Origin: an uncultured Clostridia bacterium
Lineage (GTDB): Bacteria; Bacillota; Clostridia; TANB77; CAG-508
Assembly: GCA_944392605.1 (NCBI GenBank)
Contig: CALXXE010000005.1
Location: forward strand, 7,289-71,288
Direction of reading: 5' to 3'
Length of the DNA: 64,000 nt
Notes under the pieces: generated by a model
Databases searched by the model: none
Told to the model about the DNA's origin: nothing
The model's input: the letters and a program-made list of their open reading frames with translations, nothing else
Program-made: the position numbers and the translations under genes
In this document: one piece after another, positions 4,887-32,112 of the stretch
Layout: the number at the start of each line of letters is the position of its first letter
Position numbering within the stretch: the stretch's first letter is position 1

Positions 4887-6341
4887 TTGGAAAGTATAGC
4901 TAATGAACTTGTTGCAAATGTTATAAGAAATTTTTTTGTCTGTTTAGGAACTTATTGTACAATTATAAAATTTACAAATAAGAAACAGAAGGCTATTATA
5001 AAAACAATATTTATTATACTAATTACTAGCGTGTTATCTGCTCTAGCAAGTAAAGAATCAGGGCTAATATCTAGTTTAATAGTTCAAATATTGTTGATAT
5101 CAATCTTATATAGTTTTGTTATTAAGGTAGATATAGGATATGCATTAATTATAACAGCTATTTGTTTAAGTATAAATAACATTATATACCTTATTGCCAT
5201 AATATTTAATTATATAATAAATAATTTTTATAATATTCAAAACAATTATATAAATTTGTTAATATTAATATTATTTTACATATTTATTTTATATAGCGTT
5301 CTAAAATTAAAAAGAATAAAGAATGGAATTTCATTTTTAAGCGGGAAATTGAAGAATGAGTATTTTAATATATTAATACTCAATATAAGTGTAATAATAC
5401 TATTTTCTTTTACTATATTTACTAGTTCTGATATTAATTTTATTAGTAGAATATTCTTTATGGTTATAATTTTTTCTGCTATTATGTTTGTAACCATTCA
5501 AAAATCTTTACAGTTATATTATAAACAGAAAATGTTAGTTAAGGACTTGGAAGAAACAAAAGAAGAGTTGGAGAATAAGAAGAAAGAAGTAGAAGCATTA
5601 GAAAAAGAAAACTTAGAATTTAGTAAAATAAGTCATTCGATAGCACATAAGCAAAAATCTTTAGAACATAAATTAAATGAGTTAAGTATGAAAAGTGAAA
5701 TAGCAGATGAATTAGATATAAAAGATAGAATAGATGACTTGAGTAAGAATTTAATGAAAGAGACAATTGTAGTTTTAGATAAAACAGGAATAACTGAAAT
5801 AGATGATATGCTTTCTTATATGCAATCAGAATGTGTGAAAAATAAAATAGATTTTCAATTACAATTAAACGGTAACATCTATACAATGATAAATCATCAT
5901 ATAGATAAAGAAGAATTAGAAATATTACTTGCTGACCATATAAAAAATGCAATTATAGCAATCGGATATGGAGATAATGTAAATAAAAGTATTTTAGTAA
6001 GGCTTGGTAAAATAGATGGAAGTTATGGACTATATGTTTATGATTCAGGTATAGAGTTTGAAATAGAAACATTATTAAACTTAGGAAAGAAACCAAGTAC
6101 AACACATAAAGACTCAGGTGGTACTGGTATGGGATTCATGAATACTTTTGATACGTTAAGAAAACATAATGCAAGTTTTATAATAGAGGAATATGGAAAA
6201 CCTGTTAAAGATAACTTTACTAAAGCTCTAAAATTTAAGTTTAATGGTAAGAATGAATTTAAGATTTGTTCATATAGAGAAGAAGAAATAAAAAATAAAG
6301 ATAGAGAGAATTGTCTAATTGTAGAAAAACTATCTTTATAG
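4887..6341 (+). CDS. Membrane sensor histidine kinase, AgrC/GHKL-like (polytopic N-terminus, coiled coil, HATPase_c)
   Basis: About 6 TM helices lie in aa 1-205. A coiled-coil linker follows, with a candidate His box FSKISHSIAHKQKSL. The C-terminal ATPase has YVYDSGIEFE and the G2 box DSGGTGMGF. TTG start 6 nt after aaggtga. Confidence 0.75.
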   Translation: MESIANELVANVIRNFFVCLGTYCTIIKFTNKKQKAIIKTIFIILITSVLSALASKESGLISSLIVQILLISILYSFVIKVDIGYALIITAICLSINNIIYLIAIIFNYIINNFYNIQNNYINLLILILFYIFILYSVLKLKRIKNGISFLSGKLKNEYFNILILNISVIILFSFTIFTSSDINFISRIFFMVIIFSAIMFVTIQKSLQLYYKQKMLVKDLEETKEELENKKKEVEALEKENLEFSKISHSIAHKQKSLEHKLNELSMKSEIADELDIKDRIDDLSKNLMKETIVVLDKTGITEIDDMLSYMQSECVKNKIDFQLQLNGNIYTMINHHIDKEELEILLADHIKNAIIAIGYGDNVNKSILVRLGKIDGSYGLYVYDSGIEFEIETLLNLGKKPSTTHKDSGGTGMGFMNTFDTLRKHNASFIIEEYGKPVKDNFTKALKFKFNGKNEFKICSYREEEIKNKDRENCLIVEKLSL

Positions 6342-12375: not shown

Positions 12376-13221
12376 ATGGAAAAAGAGTTAGTAAATAAAA
12401 CAGAAAAAGATTTTGAGAGTATTAAACATATTGATGAAAATGGTGTGGAATTTTGGTATGCAAGAGAACTAATGACGATGTTAGAATATAAACAGTGGAG
12501 ACGTTTTGAACAAGTGATAGAAAAAGCAAAAGAAGCTTGTGAAAATAGCAATATAAAAGTAGATGACCATTTTGCCAACGTTGGCAAAATCGTGAAGGCG
12601 GGAGTAACTAGTAAAAATATTGGAGATATAAAATTAACTAGATATGCTTGTTACTTAATTGCTCAAAATGGAGATAGTAGAAAAAAAGCAATAGCAATGG
12701 CACAAACTTATTTTGCAGTTCAAACTAGAAAACAGGAAATAACAAGAAAAGAATATGAAAGTCTAAGTGAAGACGAAAAAAGACTATATACGAGAAAAAA
12801 TGTAAGAGATAAAAATAAATATTTATTTGATACTGCAAAAGCTGCAGGAGTTAAAAATTATGGAAAATTTAACAATTATGGATATAGAGGACTATATAAT
12901 GGAGAAACGGCAAAAGACATAGCAAATAGAAAAGGAATATCTCCAAGAGAAGATATATTAGATTATATGAGTAGTACAGAGCTTGCAGCTAATTTGTTTA
13001 GAATAACACAAACTGATGAAGTTAAAAAAAATAAAAATATAGATAATGAAAATGATGCTTGTAGAACGCACCATAATGTAGGACAAGCAGTTAGACAAAC
13101 AATAAAAAGAATCGGAGGTACAATGCCAGAGGATTTACCGACACCAAGTAGAAGTGCAAAAGAAATAGAAAAAGAAAGAAATAAGAATTTAAAAATTGAA
13201 AATAGAGAAAAATTAAATTAA
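12376..13221 (+). CDS. dinD: DNA damage-inducible protein D (DinD-like)
   Basis: FESIKHIDENGVEFWYARELMTMLEYKQWRRFEQVIEKAKEAC..TRYACYLIAQNGDSRKKAIAMAQTYFAVQTRKQE is the conserved DinD N-terminal region. ATG at 12376 is 9 nt after aggag. Confidence 0.8.
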   Translation: MEKELVNKTEKDFESIKHIDENGVEFWYARELMTMLEYKQWRRFEQVIEKAKEACENSNIKVDDHFANVGKIVKAGVTSKNIGDIKLTRYACYLIAQNGDSRKKAIAMAQTYFAVQTRKQEITRKEYESLSEDEKRLYTRKNVRDKNKYLFDTAKAAGVKNYGKFNNYGYRGLYNGETAKDIANRKGISPREDILDYMSSTELAANLFRITQTDEVKKNKNIDNENDACRTHHNVGQAVRQTIKRIGGTMPEDLPTPSRSAKEIEKERNKNLKIENREKLN

Positions 13222-21912: not shown

Positions 21913-21974
21913 GAAGATTAATACAATTTTAATGATATTAAATAATATTTATAAATAAAATTTTACATGTTCGC

Positions 21975-22003
21975 TTGTTTTTTATTTAAAAATGTTGTAT
22001 AGT
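21975..22003 (+). promoter_or_regulatory. Candidate promoter of the small hydrophobic-peptide gene (TTGTTT-17-TATAGT)
   Basis: Read directly; about 60 nt upstream of the peptide ATG. Confidence 0.35.
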
Positions 22004-22064
22004 GTAAAATATAGGAAATGAGAATAAGCAGATGTGGTTTGCCTCCAACAAGGAGGTGAGGCGT

Positions 22065-22184
22065 ATGGTAGAAATAAAAGCATTATTATTAATAATAAAA
22101 TTACTTTTTGCTGGTCTTGTATCAGTAACTATCATTACGTTTGCCTTAGTTATAGCATTAGTTGTAATTATTAGCAAACAATAA
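22065..22184 (+). CDS. Candidate type I toxin: 39-aa hydrophobic peptide MVEIKALLLIIKLLFAGLVSVTIITFALVIALVVIISKQ
   Basis: Untracked ORF with strong RBS aaggaggtg 7 nt upstream. It has a single TM helix and a polar tail. The SD can be sequestered by the upstream gcctcc (22041-22046 pairs with 22052-57). A convergent antisense promoter lies downstream. Confidence 0.5.
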   Translation: MVEIKALLLIIKLLFAGLVSVTIITFALVIALVVIISKQ

Positions 22185-22191
22185 AACCAAT

Positions 22192-22280
22192 AAAAAAAAC
22201 ACATCTGTGAAAACTTTGGCGAGTTTGATGTGTTTTTACATATATAATTCGGCAAACCACTTTGTGGTTTCTTGTTTCCT
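22192..22280 (-). ncRNA. Candidate antisense (antitoxin-like) sRNA, about 90 nt
   Basis: Minus-strand promoter TTGACT (22315-22310), 17-nt spacer, TATAAT (22292-22287). 5-prime hairpin gaaaccac/gtggtttg. Terminator aaaaacacatc..gatgtgttttt plus a T-run is shared with, and complementary to, the 3-prime end of the peptide mRNA. Confidence 0.4.
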
Positions 22281-22344
22281 ATAATTATTATACACAGATT
22301 TTTAGAAAAAGTCAAATAATTTTCAAAATAAAATCAAATGTGTT
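22261..22344. repeat. 84-nt promoter-module repeat, copy 1
   Basis: Aligns by hand to 23543-23626 at roughly 75 % identity with two compensating 1-nt gaps. Shared blocks are tttgtggtt, tttcct, aaaagtcaaat and ataaaatcaaa.gtgtt. Confidence 0.7.
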
Positions 22345-22580
22345 AAAAATGTGTTAAAATTAAAAAAACTAATACTTGAAAGCCAGTATATGAGCAAGTT
22401 AGGAGAATTAGTCTATACGACTGTCGCCGCCACTGATAATCAGGAAATAATTATTTAAATATTCCTGATTTTTTTATACTCAATAATGCAAACGTTTTTT
22501 TGTATTATTCTTAAAACTTGTGGTAATATATGTTAAAATTATGCACAATAAATTAGAAAATTTAATATAGGAGAAATAGA

Positions 22581-23279
22581 ATGGAAGAAAACAATGAAGA
22601 GAAAAAGAATCAAGAACAAAAAAATGAAGCAATGATACATAAAGATAATTCTTTAAATAGATTAGATTTGTCATTTATAAAACATATTGATTTAAAAGAA
22701 TATAAATTATGTAATTTGTTAGCTTATTGGATTTATGATTTCGCTAATTATCATGATCAGGAAAGAGAATTTGATACAACTAAAATGATTACTTTTAAGC
22801 GTGGAAATATTATAAAGGCAAATTTAGGATTTAATGTTGGACATGAATTAGGTGGATTACATTATTGTATTGTTTTAGATAAAATTGATAATCCTAAAAA
22901 TGGAACTTTAAATGTAATACCATTAACTTCAAAGAAAAATAAAAAATATCCAAAATCTGCAATAGACTTAGGAAATGAAATTTTTGATACATTAAATGCT
23001 TTATATTCAAAAGAAATTAAAAAATTGTCTAATAAATATCAAGATATATGGAGTCTTCCGGCTGAAAGAGTAGAACAGTTTACATCTGATTTTGAATATG
23101 TAAAAAAGATAAAAGATGAAATATCAAAAATGAAAATAGGAAGTGTTGCTCTTATAAATCAAATAACCACAATAAGCAAACAGCGAATATTTGATGATGA
23201 TATTCTAAGAAGAGTTCGCTTATCTAAAGATAGTCTAGATTTATTAGATAAGAATATTATAAAATATTTTACAAAATAA
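22581..23279 (+). CDS. Oversized PemK/MazF-like toxin-fold protein (232 aa) with an N-terminal extension and an internal insertion
   Basis: FKRGNIIKANLGFNVGHELGGLHYCIVLDK..LNVIPLTSKK and the C-terminal GSVALINQITTISKQRI parallel the MazF blocks GD.....F....G.E..G.RP.LV.. / ..V.PLTS / S.....QIRTIDK.RL. No MazE-like ORF lies upstream. Confidence 0.55.
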   Translation: MEENNEEKKNQEQKNEAMIHKDNSLNRLDLSFIKHIDLKEYKLCNLLAYWIYDFANYHDQEREFDTTKMITFKRGNIIKANLGFNVGHELGGLHYCIVLDKIDNPKNGTLNVIPLTSKKNKKYPKSAIDLGNEIFDTLNALYSKEIKKLSNKYQDIWSLPAERVEQFTSDFEYVKKIKDEISKMKIGSVALINQITTISKQRIFDDDILRRVRLSKDSLDLLDKNIIKYFTK

Positions 23280-23485
23280 TAGGAGAACTGCTATGAGTTC
23301 TCCAAAGTCTTCTGACGCCCGACTACACTAATGTAGTGGGAAAGTTAAATAAATTATAACATTAATTATTTAACTTGTCAAATTGTATTGACATTAATAA
23401 TATATGCAAACAATCAAATTTTTATACATATTATTTTAAATATTGGAGTTACAATTTTTAAATATAGGTGAAAAATATAAGTAAT

Positions 23486-23563
23486 AAAAAATAACCATTC
23501 TGCTTTGTACGGTCGAATGGTTATTATTCTTCACGCAACTAATTTGTGGTTATTTTATTTCCT
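23486..23563 (-). ncRNA. Second candidate sRNA driven by promoter-module copy 2 (about 78 nt)
   Basis: Minus-strand TTGACT (23598-23593), 17-nt spacer, TATGAT (23575-23570). Terminator ataaccattc/gaatggttat plus a T-run on the minus strand. No partner peptide ORF was found opposite it. Confidence 0.3.
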
Positions 23564-23626
23564 GCATTTATCATACTTAGGTTTTGGGTAAAAGTCAAAT
23601 GATTCGATAATAAAATCAAAGGTGTT
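23543..23626. repeat. 84-nt promoter-module repeat, copy 2
   Basis: See copy 1. Same orientation, on the other side of the PemK-like gene. Confidence 0.7.
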
Positions 23627-31437: not shown

Positions 31438-32112
31438 GTGAATTTAGAAGAGCTAGAAAAAAATATAGGTTATACATTTAAAAACAAAGAACTACTAAAA
31501 CAAGCACTAAGGCATACATCTTATGCTAATGAACGTAACTTAGAAAGTAATGAAAAATTAGAGTTTTTAGGAGACAGTATATTAGAATTTTTATCAAGTA
31601 AATATATCTATAATAAGTATACAAAACTAAGAGAAGGAGAAATGACTAAAGTTAGAGCAACAGTGGTATGTGAAAAAAGCCTGTACAAAGTAGCAAAATT
31701 GCATAATTTTAGTGATTTCTTGTACTTAGGAAAATCAGAGCAAAAGACAGATGGAAGCAAAAGACCTGCAATTCTAGCAGATAGTGTAGAAGCTGTAATA
31801 GCGGCTATATACTTAGATGGTGGGTTAGAAGAAGCAGAAAAATTTATAATAGAAAATTTAAAAGATGCAATCTTAGATGCAACAAAACATGTAGGAGATA
31901 AAGATTATAAAACAGTATTACAAGAAAAGCTTCAAGAACATGGTGATGTAAAAATAGAATATAAAACAATAGGAGAAAGTGGACCAGATCATGATAAAAC
32001 ATTTGAAGCAGATGTAGAAGTAAACGGAAAATTCTTAGCAAAAGGAAAGGGGAAAAGTAAAAAGGAAGCACAAATGCAGGCAGCCAAAAAGGCACTGGAA
32101 AATTTAAATTAG
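31438..32112 (+). CDS. rnc: Ribonuclease III
   Basis: Signature NEKLEFLGDSILEF, ADSVEAVIAAIYLDGG, and the C-terminal dsRBD (GPDHDKTFEADVEVNGK..GKGKSKKEAQMQAAKKAL). GTG start after aaggtga. Confidence 0.95.
   Translation: MNLEELEKNIGYTFKNKELLKQALRHTSYANERNLESNEKLEFLGDSILEFLSSKYIYNKYTKLREGEMTKVRATVVCEKSLYKVAKLHNFSDFLYLGKSEQKTDGSKRPAILADSVEAVIAAIYLDGGLEEAEKFIIENLKDAILDATKHVGDKDYKTVLQEKLQEHGDVKIEYKTIGESGPDHDKTFEADVEVNGKFLAKGKGKSKKEAQMQAAKKALENLN

Follow-up and report, generated by a model that had tools for sequence, protein, structure and literature searches.

A conserved two-RNA module with the features of a type I toxin-antitoxin pair in uncultured gut Clostridia

Two small genes which face each other across a common terminator in the DNA of an uncultured Clostridia bacterium (GenBank assembly GCA_944392605.1, contig CALXXE010000005.1, positions 7,289 to 71,288 of the forward strand) raise the question of whether they specify a toxin and the RNA which silences it. 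This stretch of 64,000 nucleotides (nt) is referred to as the window, and all coordinates are counted from its first letter. One gene encodes a hydrophobic peptide of 39 amino acids (aa), while the other is predicted to specify a small RNA (sRNA), and the initial annotation of the locus had viewed them as a candidate type I toxin-antitoxin pair. That reading is supported by the comparative evidence presented here, which encompasses the open reading frame (ORF), the antisense promoter, the terminator, the sequestration of the Shine-Dalgarno (SD) sequence and a one-sided pattern of decay. There is very little doubt that the locus represents a genuine, conserved two-RNA module, and it is considered probable, on the basis of sequence comparison, that this module is a type I toxin-antitoxin pair belonging to a family not described before.

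The whole module occupies approximately 340 bp, and the elements referred to below are located as follows, block A, segment X, block B and the anti-SD sequence all lying within the leader of the candidate toxin messenger RNA (mRNA).

21975..22003, + strand: toxin promoter, read from the sequence (-35 TTGTTT at 21975-21980, 17-nt spacer, -10 TATAGT at 21998-22003)
22011..22064, + strand: toxin mRNA leader, based on predicted folds and near-invariance over 90 copies
22011-22025, + strand: block A, AUAGGAAAUGAGAAU
22028-22036, + strand: segment X, GCAGAUGUG
22034-22043, + strand: block B, GUGGUUUGCC
22041-22046, + strand: anti-SD sequence GCCUCC
22050-22058, + strand: SD sequence aaggaggtg (GGAGGUG at 22052-22058), 6 nt 5' of the ATG
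22065..22184, + strand: candidate toxin ORF of 39 aa, MVEIKALLLIIKLLFAGLVSVTIITFALVIALVVIISKQ; conserved, predicted to form a continuous helix
22129..22135, + strand: partner of the AUG lock, CUAUCAU (Thr-Ile-Ile codons), pairing with AUGGUAG at 22065-22071
22139..22179, + strand: ORF-internal hairpin, GUUUGC (22139-22144) with GCAAAC (22174-22179)
22192..22237, both strands: bidirectional intrinsic terminator, identical with the 46-nt RNA overlap, based on sequence and folds
22192..22282, - strand: candidate antitoxin sRNA of ~91 nt, comprising the leader AUAGGAAACAAG, a 5' hairpin (22254-22270), an AU-rich linker and the terminator
22287..22315, - strand: sRNA promoter (-35 TTGACT at 22315-22310, 17-nt spacer, -10 TATAAT at 22292-22287; 11/12 consensus)

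The 39-aa ORF and the opposite-strand TTGACT-17-TATAAT promoter, which matches the consensus at 11 of 12 positions, are present as the initial annotation had described them, and its antisense RNA of about 90 nt corresponds to a predicted unit of 91 nt reaching from ~22282, downstream of the promoter, to ~22192 at the terminator. An A-run (22192-22199) and a T-run (22233-22237) border the terminator hairpin (22197-22235), and termination is therefore possible on both strands; the complementarity of about 45 nt which had been attributed to this common element was found to extend over 46 nt. The toxin promoter has a weak -35 element and scored below the threshold of the promoter scanner.

Recurrence of the module in its own genome (2.0 Mb, 27.6% guanine plus cytosine [G+C], 38 contigs), at 67 to 83% identity, and in 42 of 61 related genomes indicates that the arrangement is more than a product of chance. 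A covariance model of the sRNA, R1, was built from 69 sequences and assigns the window copy a score of 79.4 bits (expectation value [E] = 6e-12). Seven R1 matches were obtained in the own genome, which harbors five intact modules (the window copy, two on contig 16 and one each on contigs 4 and 6), one decayed module on contig 11, in which the start codon is gone and stops are present, and two orphan sRNAs, one of them an R1 match and the other a degenerate copy within the window at 23543-23626. Across the taxonomic family, R1 matches were found in 114 of 151 genomes and 43 of 50 genera, with one to nine copies per genome, and three other families of the order were matched additionally. A scan for the exact pattern of leader and SD sequence retrieved 119 loci, mostly from human, goat, rabbit and mouse guts, and most of these belong to records titled uncultured Clostridia, Clostridium sp. 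CAG:440 or Clostridium sp. 28_17. Most copies of the module are chromosomal; neither the INPHARED phages nor the PLSDB plasmids yielded a match, while the four pattern matches in IMG/VR comprised one true module on a predicted viral contig (L294), one distant relative (L293) and two chance matches in GC-rich DNA.

Conservation of the ORF at homologous loci, on which the initial annotation had made its reading depend, is apparent from the retention of a frame of 33 to 42 codons in 86 of 90 non-identical modules, the four others including one which has lost its start codon (L010) and two with truncated frames (L056 and L089). All insertions and deletions within the ORF comprise whole codons, and pairwise differences at the first, second and third codon positions amount to 0.31, 0.18 and 0.32, respectively; the second position is thus the most conserved, and the residues accordingly stay hydrophobic. 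As judged from these alignments, the ORF evolves as a protein-coding gene under selection. The consensus of the encoded peptide is M[IV]E..LL.II[YK][IL]L..L...TII.FALIIALV.I[IL]SK(QK), and AlphaFold2 modeled it as a single continuous helix over residues 2 to 38 (predicted local distance difference test score, 95); this predicted single-helix membrane peptide is the presumed toxin of the pair. Neither proline nor the motif PXXXG occurs in 82 aligned peptides, whose C-terminal tail, SK(QK), contributes one or two lysines. An extended version of 50 aa, initiating at the in-frame start at 22032, was considered and rejected, as paralogues whose spacers differ in length do not keep this frame and the SD sequence is placed before 22065.

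The same RNA chassis carries at least four further peptide classes, represented by MIEAVLLEIIYLLLF..VVETIIVFALIILVIILSK, by MVKVILFFIISLMLSLTLNVALTAVLYKNWVDKQLHK, by MIEFLMFLIIGLIISTTINVALLTVIYIQWTNKE and by a class of 49 to 52 aa (MLLEQVYL...RKLDNKK..). Scans of the five classes against Pfam, NCBIfam, PHROGs and PADLOC returned nothing above noise. For the peptide itself, Pfam at E <= 10 gave unrelated domains of unknown function only, and a PDB sequence search with the peptide profile gave only an unrelated FXYD chain (E = 0.64). Relatives in the protein databases, retrieved with a 40-aa paralogue of the window peptide as the query, are restricted to unnamed gut-metagenome peptides, one of them labeled as a hypothetical Caudoviricetes protein.

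Translation of the candidate toxin appears to be restrained by its own mRNA at several levels. As the initial annotation had suggested, the strong SD sequence aaggaggtg is paired with the upstream gcctcc in the predicted minimum-free-energy fold of the mRNA (-53.6 kcal/mol, z = -3.2), and this hairpin is retained in the consensus fold derived from 55 main-class mRNAs using RNAalifold. The consensus fold contains two further helices. In the first, here termed the AUG lock, the start region AUG[AG]UAG forms a 7-bp helix with CUAUCAU, in which G-C alternates with G-U and which is present in the window copy's own fold as well; the second is the ORF-internal hairpin GUUUGC/GCAAAC, in which one pair is compensatory, being G-C in 25 sequences and A-U in 22. 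Codon usage follows the paired positions, at which NCG and AGC codons are preferred: at the AUG-lock column, all 81 of 81 threonine codons are ACT and ATC is preferred, while in the ORF hairpin, alanine is encoded by GCC in 68 of 69 copies, compared to 2.9% genome-wide, and AGC outnumbers AGT by 59 to 12. Going by these predicted folds and codon biases, the toxin mRNA is translationally locked through the SD hairpin, the AUG lock and the ORF hairpin, held by rare codons.

The sRNA unit is, by the same comparative standard, a conserved gene. Of the 86 modules whose ORF is intact, 85 have retained its promoter, which is located at a fixed distance of 5 nt from the leader ATAGGAAATGGAGAAACCACAAACGTGGTTTGCC; the -35 element reads TTGAC[AT] in 76 of 85 cases, the -10 element reads TATAAT in 81 of 85, and the spacer spans 16 to 18 nt. 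The predicted length of the sRNA across modules is 82 to 97 nt. In the predicted fold of the window copy (-19.0 kcal/mol, z = -2.7), a 5' hairpin, whose core CCAC/GUGG is invariant, is followed by the terminator, in the stem of which compensatory changes affect four pairs (27 two-sided sequence-by-pair cells compared to 6.3 expected, a count reached by 0 of 500 shuffles). On the mRNA strand, the terminator loop contains the YUNR-like motif UUGR in 45 of 79 copies, including the window copy (UUGG). A coding function of the sRNA leader (AUGGAG...) was rejected, since the window copy has no AUG. At the Rfam gathering threshold, only the two transfer RNAs (tRNAs) in the window qualified, and neither the sRNA nor the mRNA did so; the best matches below threshold were Spy779816 (26.5 bits with 67 needed, and in a wider window only) and RefA9 (21.8 bits with 49 needed), and RAGATH-27 was likewise only a weak match in a permissive search.

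The two promoters of the module differ consistently in their predicted strength, expressed as the number of matches to the consensus at 12 positions. Among 63 non-redundant modules, the mean was 11.3/12 for the sRNA promoter and 8.8/12 for the toxin promoter (Wilcoxon p = 5e-11); the two were tied in 7 modules, and in all 56 others the sRNA promoter was the better match.

The manner in which the module decays is equally asymmetric. Two samples were compared, one anchored on the sRNA (89 loci, 88 assessable) and the other on the toxin leader (86 intact ORFs). In the former, SD sequence and ORF are intact at 69 of 88 loci, and the toxin gene has been lost from the other 19 with retention of the sRNA and its promoter; in the latter, a single intact ORF of the 86 is unaccompanied by an sRNA, owing to an insertion in the terminator loop (L122). 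The asymmetry between antitoxin-alone and toxin-alone loci (Fisher's exact test, p = 1.5e-5) would be predicted for a peptide which does harm in the absence of the RNA. The 19 toxin-less loci could also be taken to mean that the sRNA is the primary unit, either a trans-acting regulator or a transcript-end element, and that the peptide gene is merely one neighbor making use of its terminator; several of these sRNA genes indeed converge on ordinary genes (L154, L177, L178 and L250), and the conservation of the 5' domain exceeds the apparent need for pairing with the toxin mRNA. This explanation is regarded as improbable, for although seven of the 19 loci have no ORF remnant, 12 retain remnants of the toxin gene or leader (in six, a 3' fragment of a 5'-truncated ORF survives; three have internal deletions, two carry point or frameshift mutations and one has lost the SD sequence) and therefore represent decayed modules rather than independent sRNA genes. 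The sRNA leader, moreover, co-varies with that of the adjacent toxin mRNA, which ties the sRNA to its partner.

It is somewhat less improbable, if still unlikely, that the peptide is a regulated, non-toxic small membrane protein which joins a membrane complex as an accessory subunit or modulates it, and whose synthesis is adjusted by a cis-antisense RNA without any addiction or killing. The peptide has no long charged tail and matches no toxin family, and many small hydrophobic proteins of Gram-positive bacteria are non-toxic. Such a function would be poorly reconciled with at least five paralogues per genome and at least five peptide classes, which fit a single membrane partner poorly, whereas one-sided decay, a double translation lock and an antitoxin promoter which is never the weaker of the two are expected of a harmful product. 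A toxin under antisense control is, thus, the reading adopted here.

A further property of the module concerns the leaders of its two RNAs. In each module, the mRNA and the sRNA begin with closely similar sequences of 12 to 14 nt, block A, and they also resemble each other in the 10-nt block B; between modules both blocks change jointly and in both RNAs. Within the 49- to 52-aa class, leader similarity reaches 8.5 for cognate and 6.4 for permuted pairs (p < 2e-4), and sequences common to both RNAs of a module include GAUAAGC, GAUGAAC, GAUAAAC and GAUGAGA. The antitoxin carries, in other words, a co-evolving copy of the toxin leader in blocks A and B, in which only the central address segment has been swapped. 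16S rRNA was considered as a shared partner of both leaders and rejected, as a fixed host partner cannot explain module-specific co-variation. On the DNA, the two leaders form inverted repeats which co-vary and bracket the module (blocks A and B at 22011-22043 facing 22249-22282), and they might be regarded as DNA sites, that is, as the terminal repeats of a small mobile cassette or as recombination sites of an invertible segment, with the RNA features being secondary. Multiple copies, the position beside tRNA genes in the window and in four related genomes, and the copy on a predicted viral contig (L294) would all fit such an element. Nevertheless, both promoters lie outside the repeats and yet maintain conserved, fixed distances from them, no recombinase or transposase is associated with the module, and the repeats have just 10 to 14 identical bases per block; a role as DNA sites is, for these reasons, considered highly improbable.

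Between and partly within these blocks, the toxin leader contains segment X, whose sequence is that of the 3' arm of the terminator read in the sense of the sRNA; the 5' terminator arm of the same mRNA (CACAUCUGU on the mRNA strand) is, consequently, the complement of X. On the mRNA strand, though not on that of the sRNA, the match continues into the terminator loop, and the consensus fold prefers a 9-bp long-range helix between X and the terminator arm over the terminator hairpin. In five sequence classes, X tracks the terminator arm by matching changes, as set out below; the classes were compared by eye, as automatic terminator calling missed some divergent modules.

X class 1: CAGAUGUG pairs with CACAUCUG
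X class 2: AGCAGA(A)GUGUGU pairs with ACACACUCUGCU
X class 3: GCAGAG(..)AUGUG pairs with CACAUCUCUGC
X class 4: CAGAG(U)GUGUG pairs with CACACCUCUG
X class 5: GCAGA(U)GUGG pairs with CCACUCUGC

Cognate pairs of X and terminator arm outscore permuted pairs (p < 5e-4). In the predicted fold of a hypothetical read-through mRNA (22011-22290), block A is paired with its complement and X with the terminator arm (z = -7). An 8-nt direct repeat, TGTGGTTT, is present at 22033-22040 and 22262-22269, upstream of the SD sequence, and the only further contact between the two RNAs, of 8 to 13 nt, was consistently predicted at one site, at which UGUGGUUU(gc)CUCCA of the mRNA faces UGGAGAAACCACA of the sRNA.

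Comparative sequence analysis establishes how the module is laid out, that both of its genes are conserved, that the mRNA has translation locks, that the promoters are asymmetric and that decay is one-sided, while the functions ascribed to X and the twin leaders are put forward as hypotheses. With type I control as the framework, the weak toxin promoter would give rise to an mRNA of ~225 nt for the 39-residue membrane peptide, and the near-consensus convergent promoter to an sRNA of ~90 nt ending in the same terminator, such that the last 46 nt of the two RNAs would be perfectly complementary. The sRNA, presumably in excess, would dock on the terminator region of the mRNA, probably by loop-loop contact, and the resulting 46-bp duplex would be a substrate for RNase III; a gene for RNase III is located in the window at 31438-32112, 9 kb from the module. 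Occupation of the terminator arm by the sRNA would also free X, and the SD stem could then lengthen from 6 bp (GCCUCC/GGAGGU) to the 9 to 10 bp of the single-sequence minimum-free-energy fold. Upon loss of the sRNA, the stable mRNA would eventually be translated, and the peptide would damage the membrane.

A more far-reaching view, which we advance only tentatively, is that the conserved unit is the RNA chassis itself and that the sRNA acts as a mimic of the toxin leader, competing for the partner strands of the latter, with the level of the sRNA determining which fold is adopted. One such strand would be the 5' arm of the terminator, and the other, available in read-through transcripts, the leader's complement. 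Which of two mutually exclusive long-range folds the mRNA takes up would thereby depend on how much sRNA is present, an action which goes beyond masking a site. The same chassis may have been re-used for at least five unrelated peptide classes.

Several observations weigh against the interpretation as a type I pair or against details of its proposed control. About one fifth of the sRNAs are orphans, which could mean that the sRNA has a function of its own, and the polar tail of the peptide, only SKQ(K), is shorter than the charged tails usual in type I toxins. Complementarity between the two RNAs is confined to two terminator hairpins, both of which are self-folded, and the pairing of X with the terminator competes with the local hairpin and is absent from the single-sequence minimum-free-energy fold. 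The energy of the UGUGGUUU(gc)CUCCA/UGGAGAAACCACA contact is no better than that of shuffled controls (mean z = -0.9), and this contact is weaker in the window copy, in which the sRNA leader has CAAG in place of UGGAG and the hairpin loop is 1 nt shorter.

The genomic surroundings of the module provide some additional observations. Upstream are topA and the genes for tRNA-Gly(GCC) and tRNA-Cys(GCA), and downstream is a PemK/MazF-like gene. A module adjoins the same two tRNA genes at four loci in related genomes (L009, L010, L037 and L074), one of which, L037, harbors two different modules in tandem beside them, at 5436 and 5959; the site may be either inherited or a hotspot. Three modules with a damaged toxin side (L157, L276 and the own-genome copy C11:32297-32373) are located directly 3' of a gene ending in ...PTNSEFIAMIADKLRL..., a sequence which we take to resemble the C terminus of Spo0A.

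At the upstream edge of the module, the conserved motif GTTCGCT (21969-21975) ends on the first base of the toxin -35 element. The fuller form, (T)GTTCGCT[TA]G, which overlaps this element (window positions 21969-21980), was also found at L003, L011, L188, L193, L208, L210, L213, L215 and L289, in the main and 49- to 52-aa module classes alike, and may be an operator or a piece of an unusual promoter. Assignment of GTTCGCT as a LexA or Cheo box was rejected because it constitutes a half-site only. Just beyond the other end of the module are two copies of a tandem 11-mer, aaatgtgttaa (22336-22357, + strand), a non-hydrophobic ORF of 35 aa (22351-22458, + strand) and a terminator-like hairpin with a T-run (~22437-22475, + strand), at which transcription of the toxin mRNA would next be halted in the event of read-through.

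The PemK/MazF-like gene (22581-23279, + strand) encodes a 232-aa protein whose PemK/MazF domain (Pfam E = 4.7e-12) is best matched over residues 73 to 133 only, and no antitoxin ORF is recognizable beside it. On the opposite strand, a hairpin and an intrinsic terminator (23303-23282) lie downstream of a perfect TTGACA-17-TATAAT promoter with a TG element (23381-23353), and the predicted RNA of ~60 to 70 nt would end 3 nt from the stop codon of the PemK/MazF-like gene; this unit (23282-23381, - strand) could be an antisense RNA or RNA antitoxin of the solitary MazF-like gene. The degenerate relative of the module's sRNA in the window is preceded by its own promoter on the - strand (TTGACT at 23598-23593, 17-nt spacer, TATGAT at 23575-23570), followed by AGGAAATAAAATAACCACAAATTAG, and its terminator differs from that of the module (ATAACCATTC...GAATGGTTAT with a T-run, ~23523-23483). 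No convergent hydrophobic ORF is present at 23483-23598, and the unit looks, from its sequence, like an orphan or decayed relative of the antitoxin.

The distant relative in IMG/VR (L293; uncultivated virus genome [UViG] 3300012155_000004, 38% G+C, match at 12882-12919 on the - strand) derives from a different organism or phage. Its leader has the same layout, AGCAGATGTGGTTTGCCTCC, a spacer and GGGAGGTG, but its peptide is a different one of 29 aa, MNDMYKLLTLLLAFGTFIIVLLTFIFKFS. The terminator arm AAAACCACUCUGC is complementary to GCAGA(U)GUGGUUU of the leader, and AGGUAAUCA starts both RNAs.

The family described here is present in approximately three-quarters of the sampled genomes of a taxonomic family of uncultured, small-genome gut Clostridia, with up to nine copies, and its peptide genes are mostly uncalled or unnamed, peptide and sRNA both falling outside all curated families searched. 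If the proposed reading is correct, a widespread class of membrane-active peptides and antisense RNAs would be added to the human and animal gut microbiome, with possible roles in mobile-element maintenance, phage defense or persistence. The design combines three parts, namely, a double lock held by rare codons, a leader which copies a terminator arm and an antitoxin which copies the toxin leader, and the observed co-variation indicates compensatory mutations with which the control of a toxin by short antisense overlaps may be probed. The sRNA covariance model and the leader pattern can be used for the annotation of such loci.

The regulatory architecture of the module is a new variation on a known kind and is closest in layout to par and bsrG/SR4. 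Like the par locus of Enterococcus faecalis pAD1 (Fst; RNA I/RNA II), it has convergent promoters and a common bidirectional terminator with stem-loops able to kiss, an intramolecular stem-loop which sequesters the SD sequence, short additional complementarity in the 5' parts of the RNAs, and several copies, including chromosomal ones (PMC7472228). A YUNR U-turn in the terminator loop is absent from some par homologues (PMC7472228). The peptides of the Fst/Ldr family are characterized by a hydrophobic domain with PXXXG(C), a conserved tryptophan and a charged C-terminal tail (PMC7472228), whereas the module peptide has neither PXXXG(C), the conserved tryptophan nor a long charged tail and does not match Pfam. 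The 5' repeats differ as well: those of par are direct on the DNA and render the two RNAs complementary over the start codon, while the long repeats of the module are inverted, such that its leaders are alike. Complementarity here arises only from the 8-nt direct repeat TGTGGTTT, upstream of the SD sequence, and the resulting duplex is no better than shuffled controls.

The initial annotation had compared the locus to txpA/RatA and bsrG/SR4 of Bacillus subtilis. This comparison holds for the overlap of the antitoxin with the 3' end of the toxin mRNA, but the overlap is restricted to the terminator and the layout is nearer to those of par and SprA1/SprA1AS. Also shared with the B. subtilis systems are a stronger antitoxin promoter and a hydrophobic peptide of ~38 aa, the translation of which starts from an SD sequence held in a stem; no family match of the module peptide was obtained in Pfam, NCBIfam or PHROGs, in searches which did not align it directly with BsrG or TxpA. 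RatA overlaps the txpA mRNA by ~75 nt. The overlap of SR4 is ~123 nt (PMC3834814), compared to the 46 nt of the module, and SR4 lacks the copy of the mRNA leader which the module sRNA has. In the bsrG mRNA, the 5' end is paired with the 3' region to which the antitoxin is directed; binding of SR4 frees the 5' 33 nt from helix P1, and the SD stem is extended from 4 to 8 bp (PMC3834814), a switch which the pairing of X with the terminator arm would also permit.

With SprA1/SprA1AS and SprA2/SprA2AS of Staphylococcus aureus, the module shares an overlap limited to the 3' ends. In the SprA antitoxins, the 5' domain lies outside the overlap and can engage the 5' region of the toxin mRNA in trans (PMC6393315), a situation comparable to that of the module; the SprA domain, however, pairs with the ribosome-binding site (RBS) and blocks ribosome loading, whereas the 5' complementarity of the module is short, located on the anti-SD side and without statistical support. 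The toxin mRNAs of hok/sok and aapA1/IsoA1 are kept inert by pairing of their 5' leaders with their distant 3' ends. The predicted pairing of X with the terminator arm, and of block A with its complement in the hypothetical read-through transcript, resembles this arrangement, although the antitoxins of hok/sok and aapA1/IsoA1 target the 5' region and the mRNA is activated by 3' processing, in contrast to the 3' terminator overlap of the module.

The modules of Clostridioides difficile (CD0956.2/RCd10, CD0977.1/RCd11 and others), with which the locus had likewise been compared at the outset, occur in the same class, Clostridia; in them, too, a toxin gene and an antisense RNA converge, the RBS is the consensus AGGAGG and a genome carries several copies (PMC7699646, PMC6563280). 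The convergent layout thus stands as a point of likeness, but the peptide is not of the lysine-tailed C. difficile kind: the CD-RCd toxins combine a hydrophobic N terminus with a lysine-rich, positively charged C terminus (PMC7699646), span 34 to 53 aa and show no sequence relation to the module peptide. Their antitoxins overlap more of the toxin transcript than the module sRNA does, and the C. difficile modules are concentrated in prophages, while those described here are mostly chromosomal. Large homology searches on type I modules have recovered almost none in other Clostridia (PMC6563280), the class in which the present family, with its twin leaders and its overlap confined to the terminator, is found.

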